This document shows, in pieces, positions 3,620-3,808 of a stretch of 6,032 nt of DNA; position 1 is the first letter of the stretch; each line of letters begins with the position of its first letter. Under the pieces are notes generated by a model. It saw only the letters and a list, made by a program, of their open reading frames with translations. It was not told the DNA's origin and searched no databases. The DNA lies in sequence record OR845271.1; one strand, 5' to 3'. Position numbers and translations under genes: made by a program. The stretch comes from Escherichia phage ECO95 1-6-1.

Positions 3620-3808
3620 TCAGAATGGTAATTCGTCAGGATTAGCCAGAAATTCACCTTTGTTTATTCGCTCGTTTCTGGCTAATGAAAGGCAATTTCT
3701 TTTCATCGATTTATCACCTGACTTACGCCAGTACATTGCCTCTGTCAGGTGATACTGACGTTTTAACCTGCTCAACTCCGGTGTCCTTGCTAAATCCACT
3801 GGTATCAT
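3620..3808 (-). CDS. Small basic protein ending in an SSB-like tip ...NPDELPF (62 aa, trimmed from the 66-aa track ORF)
   Basis: The ATG at 3808 has a strong SD (GGAGG, 5 nt spacing) and overlaps the kil stop (ATGA). The protein ends D-E-L-P-F. It occupies the slot immediately upstream of the recombinase, where arf sits in P22. Confidence 0.7.
   Translation of the reverse strand: MIPVDLARTPELSRLKRQYHLTEAMYWRKSGDKSMKRNCLSLARNERINKGEFLANPDELPF

Follow-up and report, generated by a model that had tools for sequence, protein, structure and literature searches.

A conserved Pro-Phe carboxyl end in the HkaM/Orf-66 family of phage recombination modules: a candidate SSB-tip-like docking motif

Results

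A 62-aa gene is coupled to kil and to the SSAP gene

We analyzed a 6,032 nt stretch of DNA from Escherichia phage ECO95 1-6-1 (OR845271.1; hereafter the window, numbered from its first nucleotide) and focused on a small gene at 3620-3808 on the minus strand, which lies directly upstream of the gene for a Rad52-type single-strand annealing protein (SSAP). The gene belongs to the HkaM/Orf-66 family, whose full-length members end in Pro-Phe (PF) at the free carboxyl end. In the window, the product is MIPVDLARTPELSRLKRQYHLTEAMYWRKSGDKSMKRNCLSLARNERINKGEFLANPDELPF, which begins with MIPVD and ends with NPDELPF. It is a basic protein (pI 9.65; 12 Lys and Arg vs 8 Asp and Glu) with a split charge, the pI being 10.1 for the body and 4.05 for the last 10 residues. 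[quoted passage not shown]

Both ends of the gene are arranged for translational coupling, as had been proposed, and the neighboring genes were matched in Pfam. The start codon shares bases with the kil stop codon in an ATGA overlap, and a GGAGG Shine-Dalgarno sequence is located 5 nt upstream of the start. An alternative 66-aa reading is possible from an ATG at 3818-3820, but it is less likely because this ATG falls within the Shine-Dalgarno sequence and because the database homologues are nearly all 62 aa long with an MIP start. At the other end, the codons for Pro (CCA, 3626-3628) and Phe (TTC, 3623-3625) are followed by TGA, and a gap of 8 nt separates this stop from the ATG of the SSAP gene. 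The TGA-GGTG-ATG junction is repeated in most related loci.

The relevant genes lie on the minus strand in an early-left (pL) operon of the P22-like (Lederbergvirus) type, in the order N-like antiterminator, DUF7666, cIII, kil, the 62-aa ORF, Rad52_Rad22 SSAP, Abc1 and Abc2 (Table 1). The region 2800-4400 of the window is 99.3% identical to Salmonella phage S.Kent 1-2-1 and 92-96% identical to ES18, ST64T, ST160, phage L and epsilon34. The 62-aa ORF is a genuine conserved accessory gene in the P22-type recombination module, which is organized as cIII-kil-(this gene)-SSAP-Abc1 or SSB-Abc2.

Table 1. Coordinates of the HkaM-family gene, its junctions and the neighboring genes in the window.
Feature	Position	Strand	Description
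HkaM/Orf-66-family gene	3620..3808	minus	62 codons and stop; basic helical hairpin and C-terminal tail
Predicted helical hairpin	3665..3781	minus	residues ~10-30 and 33-48 (62-aa numbering)
Tail codons N-P-D-E-L-P-F	3623..3643	minus	AAT CCT GAC GAA TTA CCA TTC
Coupling junction with kil	3805..3818	minus	GGAGG 3814-3818; ATG 3806-3808; kil TGA 3805-3807; read from sequence
Coupling junction with SSAP gene	3609..3622	minus	TGA 3620-3622; GAGGTG Shine-Dalgarno overlaps stop; SSAP ATG 3609-3611
N-like antiterminator	5594-5956	minus	
DUF7666 gene	4251-4910	minus	
cIII	3911..4051	minus	Pfam Lambda_CIII 7.3e-27
kil	3805..3918	minus	Pfam Lambda_Kil 8e-21
Rad52-type SSAP (ST64T Orf-235 type)	2904..3611	minus	Pfam Rad52_Rad22 5.1e-25, residues 5-136; PHROG 1097
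SSAP C-terminal three-helix domain	2907..3080	minus	candidate partner-binding module; alignment with Erf and Sak4-like proteins
Abc1 homologue (helix-turn-helix)	2620..2904	minus	~93% identical to P22 Abc1 by eye; Pfam Sigma70_r4_2 6.4e-7
Abc2 anti-RecBCD	2280..2573	minus	Pfam Anti-RecBCD_p2 1e-64

The HkaM/Orf-66 family is small and distinct from P22 Arf

The 62-aa protein matched PHROG 1723 (E=5.5e-32, profile positions 1-57 of 58), whose members include HK620 HkaM, ST64T Orf-66, ES18 gp50, epsilon34 gp37, Sf6 gp29 and HK97 gp42. It is 95% identical to the homologous ORF of ST64T, annotated there as 'Orf-66', 68% identical to HK620 HkaM and ~37% identical to the Sf6 gp29/HK97 gp42 type. No match was obtained in Pfam, NCBIfam and PDB profile searches. 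A profile scan of 1.84 billion representative proteins yielded 34 clusters at 50% identity, and the hairpin unit was also matched by a few multi-repeat proteins in the same scan. HK620 HkaM and its relatives share with the window protein the slot in the pL operon directly upstream of the SSAP gene as well as the PF end; they differ in that most relatives have Ser where the window protein has D58 and in that the partner SSAP varies among phages. The gene family and its position are already known. Hutinet et al. (2018, PMC5928155) described HkaM as an orphan whose function is unknown and found no homology to P22 Arf.

P22 Arf maps to the same place, between kil and the SSAP gene, and is likewise small, accessory and dispensable for annealing, but the two proteins have no sequence similarity, and Arf is acidic and ends in FAGYYS rather than PF. 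Its function is also unknown (PMC9836394; PMC12315714), and Arf has been suggested to be a DNA mimic (PMC9836394).

We also observed Arf-like ORFs next to HkaM-like genes. In Sf6- and HK97-type phages, an ORF with the Arf-like N-terminal motif [FW]SDEEFI, which is also present in P22 Arf, runs across the start codon region of the HkaM-like gene in a different frame (e.g. 2428-2586 and 2507-2677 in locus L003). Such an Arf-like ORF was found in 12 of 97 loci. Several database entries (P0033, P0034, P0038, P0056, P0060 and P0064) are in-frame fusions of an Arf-like N-terminal module with an HkaM-like C-terminal half at several different junctions, which could be either indel artefacts or real fusions.

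The Pro-Phe end is conserved at the protein level

In an alignment of 17 diverse members of the family, which have 24-73% identity to the window protein, just five columns never vary (S13, A24, E46, P61 and F62), and F53 and L54 are nearly invariant. The C-terminal pattern of the family consists of an aromatic or acidic residue followed by F-[LIM]-G/A, 2-5 variable residues and P-F-COOH. Every full-length representative from the 1.84-billion-protein scan ends in PF; the exceptions that we encountered are a singleton ending in Cys and one database variant ending in ELQF (P0020). Close relatives end in ELPF and rarely in EMPF, KIPF or EIPF, the Sf6 clade ends in G-P-C-P-F, and the diverse representatives end in DLPF, DMPF, EPPF (three times), ETPF, TPPF, PAPF, NCPF or NEPF. 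The conservation of the tip, which the initial annotation had named as a check on its proposal, was thus borne out for Pro-Phe-COOH, which is invariant in full-length homologues down to 24% identity.

Among homologues, Pro is encoded by CCA, CCG or CCT and Phe by TTC or TTT. The PF end is kept before unrelated downstream sequences (TGATTAAGTAATG, TAGGGAGGGG and TAAAGGTGACC) and in front of different stop codons with the sequences that follow them (TAA AAGGTAATT, TAA AGGTGACC, TAG GGAGGGG and TGA TTAAGTAATG). Because the codons vary and the downstream sequence differs in the distant members, these results indicate that selection acts on the protein.

PF ends in the related loci are otherwise confined to SSBs

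To place the PF end in its genomic context, we compared 98 related loci (80 viral contigs, 6 genome contigs, several phage records and the contigs for the distant members). From amino-acid composition, a PF C-terminus is expected by chance in ~0.17% of proteins. Among 8161 mechanical ORFs in these loci, 135 end in PF vs ~14 expected, and these comprise 96 members of the HkaM family, ~35 phage SSBs and 4 spurious ORFs. The phage SSB tips are of three sequence types (DDIPF, DDSIPF and NDYPPF at the end). As PF ends are nearly confined to these two groups, PF is essentially a hallmark of SSB in the 98 loci, with the HkaM family as the sole non-SSB carrier.

The next gene downstream encodes a Rad52-type SSAP in 63 loci, Erf in 16, a 290-298-aa Sak4-like ATPase in 6 and an HK620-type Sak4 in 2, and one locus has an HNH gene inserted between the HkaM-like gene and Erf. 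An ORF of at least 90 aa, nearly always an SSAP, starts within 400 nt downstream in 88 of 91 loci; of the other three, one lies at a contig end, one has a degraded SSAP and one reflects a start-codon call. The SSAP ATG of most close relatives lies within ~5-10 nt of the stop codon, and the others are truncated or decayed. As judged from these sequences, the gene always lies directly upstream of an SSAP gene, or of a remnant of one, where the flank is long enough. HkaM proteins beside Rad52-type and Erf SSAPs can be 100% identical, and those beside the Sak4 types are ~70% identical.

Other genes of the module are associated less strictly. Among the 85 loci with enough flank, a phage SSB gene is present in 46. 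This amounts to no association, and the HkaM-like protein therefore neither substitutes for nor depends on a phage SSB tail. Abc2 or a divergent Abc2-like gene is found no more than 4 kb downstream in 76 of the 85 loci, a count that was 52 with the P22-type Abc2 as query and rose with a broader profile, and Abc1 is found in 27.

Two observations were made on these neighbors. The divergent Abc2-like proteins are 94-98 aa long and carry the pattern MS.PL.GA.YL...RGRYG...D (L065 6842-7126, L072 6206-6490, L011 6532-6828 and L064 3386-3670). Some phage SSBs have an altered tip: one small SSB ends in DDSIQF instead of IPF, and several SSB-1 genes continue into TLPFPRHAIHAI, which is how Sf6 gp26 ends, as though their 3′ ends had been replaced or fused (loci with altered SSBs: L072 5805-6182, L079 6071-6565, L091 6284-6808 and L003 3877-4356).

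[quoted passage not shown]

The SSAP encoded in the window is a mosaic of the Rad52_Rad22 N-terminal domain and a C-terminal domain of ~55 aa. In alignments (window 2904-3611 on the minus strand, L004 27254-27871, L006 and L011), the last 12 residues of the C-terminal domain are identical to those of P22 Erf, and the domain is common to P22 Erf, other Erf proteins including Yersinia Erf, and the 298-aa Sak4-like ATPase; it was not found on HK620 Sak4. AlphaFold2 predicted three helices with a pLDDT (predicted local distance difference test) score of ~78. The model gave no significant match in the PDB, the Redbeta C-terminal domain included, and a homologue search with the domain returned only fragments. 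We therefore do not claim it as a Redbeta-like SSB-binding domain. From its distribution, it looks like a shuffled module for interaction with partners. A mirror-tree comparison gave similar Spearman coefficients, 0.61 between the divergence of HkaM and that of the SSAP C-terminal domain and 0.54 for the adjacent N-terminal core, shared ancestry dominating both.

The protein is predicted to be a helical hairpin with a short unpacked tail

We modeled the ORF by AlphaFold2 using a shallow alignment of 21 homologues. The model (66-aa numbering) consists of two helices at residues 14-34 and 37-52 with pLDDT of 93-98. Confidence is low for the N-terminal ~12-13 residues and for the C-terminal 14, of which the last four have pLDDT <50 and the preceding ten ~55, and the tail is not packed onto the monomer. 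In this sense the tail is predicted to be flexible, but the low pLDDT is weak evidence of disorder because the alignment is shallow. Foldseek searches of the model against PDB and BFVD returned only non-significant generic hairpins (e.g. Rop, TPR and Vta1; E >0.6). An OB fold or SSB domain was not found in the 62-aa protein, as AlphaFold2 predicted an all-helical hairpin and Pfam gave no SSB match.

In the 17-member alignment, the spacer between the conserved F-L-G and PF is 2-5 residues long. A spacer of variable length, together with the lack of a confident tail structure, would fit a short linear motif. Because the tether extends only 2-5 residues past F-L-G, PF probably acts near the surface of the hairpin, unlike the long tail of SSB.

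Discussion

The PF end as a possible SSB-tip-like docking tail

The two residues fixed at the end of the HkaM family, the penultimate Pro and the terminal Phe, are the same two on which docking of the SSB C-terminal tip depends. Docking is disabled by the ssb113 Pro-to-Ser and by the terminal Phe-to-Cys substitutions, and the pocket of the client protein reads the side chain of the SSB Phe together with its alpha-carboxylate (PMC3159472). Phage SSAPs are documented to need the SSB tail, in agreement with what the initial annotation had stated: RecT-family SSAPs rely on the 7 residues at the end of host SSB (Filsinger preprint), and Exo and SSB bind overlapping sites on the Redbeta C-terminal domain (PMC11611040). 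In addition, HK620 Sak4 needs the NDYPPF tail of its cognate SSB (PMC5928155). From the comparison of the sequences, we consider an SSB-tip-like docking tail to be the best reading of the PF end, which we hold tentatively and at somewhat less than an even chance.

The similarity to the canonical SSB tip (D-D-D-I-P-F-COOH at the end) and to the SSBs of the phage modules lies in the invariant Pro-Phe at the free carboxyl end and, in the window protein, in an aliphatic Leu at position -3 preceded by two acidic residues, so that DELPF and DDIPF have three identical and two conservative positions. In the 62-aa protein, PF is carried on a segment that is modeled with low confidence and varies in length in the family. 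In contrast to SSB, the 62-aa protein has no OB fold, no single-stranded DNA (ssDNA)-binding domain and no long disordered linker; many HkaM-family members, known here by sequence, lack the acidic run and can have C, A, T or E at position -3.

If the SSB-tip reading is correct, PF-COOH would dock as a peptide of the SSB C-terminal tip kind, with the terminal Phe side chain and the free carboxylate sitting in a hydrophobic pocket flanked by a basic residue and with Pro shaping the turn. The protein would thereby take a pocket otherwise open to the SSB tail, be it on the SSAP expressed with it or on a host enzyme that is an SSB client and acts on the same ssDNA intermediates, while the hairpin body might add specificity or a second partner. 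The outcome would be either competition, in which an SSB-recruited enzyme is kept off the recombination intermediate, or bridging. It is possible, if rather doubtful, that HkaM-family proteins are in general natural phage-encoded SSB-tip look-alikes on a non-SSB scaffold that plug or borrow SSB-tip pockets. As look-alikes, they might keep host ExoI, RecJ, RecQ, RecG and others off the 3′ tails produced by Abc2-modified RecBCD, or they might link the SSAP or a host restart factor to recombination intermediates once SSB has been displaced from these.

Points against the SSB-tip reading and alternative explanations

Several points weigh against the docking of PF in SSB-tip pockets. The evidence for it is comparative and circumstantial. 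The initial annotation had proposed an acidic SSB-like tip, of which the PF part stood as invariant and the acidic part did not: in 7 of the 17 diverse members, none of the last five residues is acidic (GPCPF, GPAPF, GTPPF and GGNCPF), and the window tail itself has only D-E. The acidic-tip resemblance thus holds for the window copy and its clade and not for the whole family, and the acidic residues that contact the 'basic ridge' of SSB clients are missing in those seven members. Position -3, which is L in the window, is L, M, I or P in the family but also C, A, T, E or Q; C, A, T or E is frequent there, which SSB tips do not usually have. Because of the very short tether, PF may work together with the surface of the hairpin and not as a free tail. 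A general decoy of the SSB tip would also be likely to impair the replication of the phage itself. The association with Rad52-type SSAPs, which the initial annotation had described, proved not to be specific, as the family also precedes Erf and two types of Sak4. Moreover, HK620 sak4 and ssb alone support the full oligonucleotide recombineering of the whole module with hkaM (Hutinet et al., 2018, PMC5928155). This neutrality of hkaM speaks against its strongly affecting either the coupling of SSAP and SSB or ssDNA exonucleases in the assay used. The oligonucleotide assay does not bear on the recombination of double-stranded DNA (dsDNA) ends with Abc2-modified RecBCD, where P22 Arf and Abc1 matter. 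Finally, at the DNA level, CCA TTC TGA GGTG is nearly invariant in most close relatives and is common to both clades where they precede the same Rad52-type SSAP gene. Part of the conservation may therefore reflect a shared mosaic junction or ribosome-binding context.

The last point leads to the explanation that the ORF mainly serves SSAP expression through coupling from kil and that its conserved 3′ end is a ribosome-binding region or a recombination junction. The ATGA overlap with kil, the 8 nt gap to the SSAP ATG with a Shine-Dalgarno sequence overlapping the stop codon, and the near invariance of CCATTCTGAGGTG in close relatives of both clades before Rad52-type SSAPs would fit. However, amino acids are conserved along the whole protein down to 24% identity and the fold is confidently predicted; PF is kept with differing codons before unrelated sequences, and its codons lie upstream of the SSAP Shine-Dalgarno sequence. 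We consider this explanation very improbable. A docking or assembly motif for something other than SSB-tip pockets is a more serious alternative, although in our estimate still rather unlikely. The partner might be Abc2-modified RecBCD, Abc1, the SSAP C-terminal domain bound in a different mode, or a neighboring subunit in a Rop-like bundle. Such a motif would account for the unconserved acidic residues, the position -3 atypical for SSB and the very short tether, and it is consistent with the Abc2-like gene in 76 of 85 loci and with the best, non-significant fold matches being dimerizing Rop-type hairpins. The N-terminal 13 residues are also conserved and are modeled with low confidence, so that more than one motif may exist. 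On the other hand, 9 of 85 loci have no Abc2-like gene and only 27 have Abc1, PF ends in these loci are otherwise confined to SSBs, and AlphaFold2 left the tail unpacked on the monomer.

The terminal residues could instead be purely structural, forming a hydrophobic C-terminal cap for the folding or stability of the hairpin, in which case the resemblance to SSB would be coincidental. With F53 and L54 just upstream nearly invariant as well, the C-terminal segment as a whole could pack against the hairpin, and low pLDDT from a 21-sequence alignment is a weak sign of disorder. We regard a cap as improbable, given that a spacer of 2-5 residues with free composition (P, C, A, T, E, D, N or S) is hard to fit to fixed packing and that capping a helix does not require Pro-Phe exactly at the carboxyl end. 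Database names suggest yet another function, a recombinase (PHROG and RefSeq) or, in the original HK620 annotation, a homologue of P22 Arf. PHROG 1723 is described as 'recombinase', a label that has been carried into RefSeq phage records (e.g. NC_002730 hkaM and NC_006949 gene 50), apparently by propagation from PHROG, and the gene does sit in the arf position. Against this, the protein is a 62-aa helical hairpin that has no recombinase domain and is without a relative in Pfam, NCBIfam or the PDB; P22 Arf, an acidic protein of 47 aa ending in GYYS, is unrelated in sequence, as Hutinet et al. agree; and Sf6-type phages have an Arf-like ORF besides the HkaM-like gene. The recombinase or Arf reading is thus already contradicted by the sequence and is almost certainly wrong.

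Other C-terminal motifs were rejected on sequence. The consensus of beta-clamp-binding motifs is QL[SD]LF or QLxLxL, while the SELPF/DELPF tail has no Gln and no Leu at the fourth position and clade B ends in GPCPF. The tail was likewise rejected as an FtsZ C-terminal peptide (DIPAFL), as a C-terminal degron and as a periplasmic PDZ ligand, the protein having no signal peptide.

Comparison with known systems

Competing C-terminal tails and accessory proteins in the same slot are known from other phages. In T7, the SSB gp2.5 and the helicase-primase gp4 have acidic C-terminal tails that end in Phe and compete for one site; these differ from the PF tail in being long and strongly acidic, in ending in D-F and in having T7 DNA polymerase as the partner. 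Lambda Gam, whose gene fills the slot that separates kil from the SSAP gene, modulates host nucleases to help phage recombination, but it has an unrelated fold, acting as a dimeric DNA mimic that blocks RecBCD, whereas the window phage has Abc2 for RecBCD. The hand-off among lambda Exo, Redbeta and the SSB tip provides a precedent for a module partner and the host SSB tail overlapping on the C-terminal domain of an SSAP (PMC11611040). The window module differs in having no Exo, and the C-terminal domain of its SSAP gave no detectable structural match to that of Redbeta. The domain in the window SSAP is the same as in P22 Erf, a likeness of the window module to P22.

Possible implications

The SSB C-terminal tip is a hub that recruits well over a dozen enzymes of replication, repair and recombination, and it limits the portability of phage recombineering proteins between hosts. 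An SSB-tip-type docking motif on a tiny helical non-SSB scaffold, if it is one, would be a natural probe or inhibitor of this hub, and phages would have in it a means, not described before, of rewiring the host SSB interactions. A molecular function for the 'accessory recombination' slot of P22-like phages might also follow from it. The gene might matter for dsDNA recombineering with Erf, Rad52-type or Sak4 systems, as the assays made without it were of oligonucleotide recombineering only. Should the tail have nothing to do with SSB pockets, what is left is a conserved small protein whose terminal motif is invariant. In the searchable literature, we found no report of an invariant PF end or of a phage-encoded non-SSB look-alike of the SSB tip, and nothing on HkaM beyond Hutinet et al., 2018.

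Additional observations in the operon

Four minor features were noted in the operon. The Abc1 homologue may carry a misleading name ('anti-RecBCD 1'), as a preprint describes P22 Abc1 as a helix-turn-helix protein that triggers cell death encoded by P4. A terminator-like hairpin followed by a T-run is present at 4120-4140 on the minus strand just upstream of cIII, where lambda and HK620 have tL2. The DUF7666 gene contains a 27 nt tandem repeat at 4459-4559 (3.7 copies, 94% matches), which encodes units of the GDWSAATNTGNRSAATNTG type. The only plus-strand gene of the operon, at 5090-5593, encodes a 167-aa protein of PHROG 1244 (unknown function) with CxxC...CxxC at its C-terminal end, and it occupies the slot of the opposite-strand hkaP of HK620, a putative superinfection-exclusion gene.

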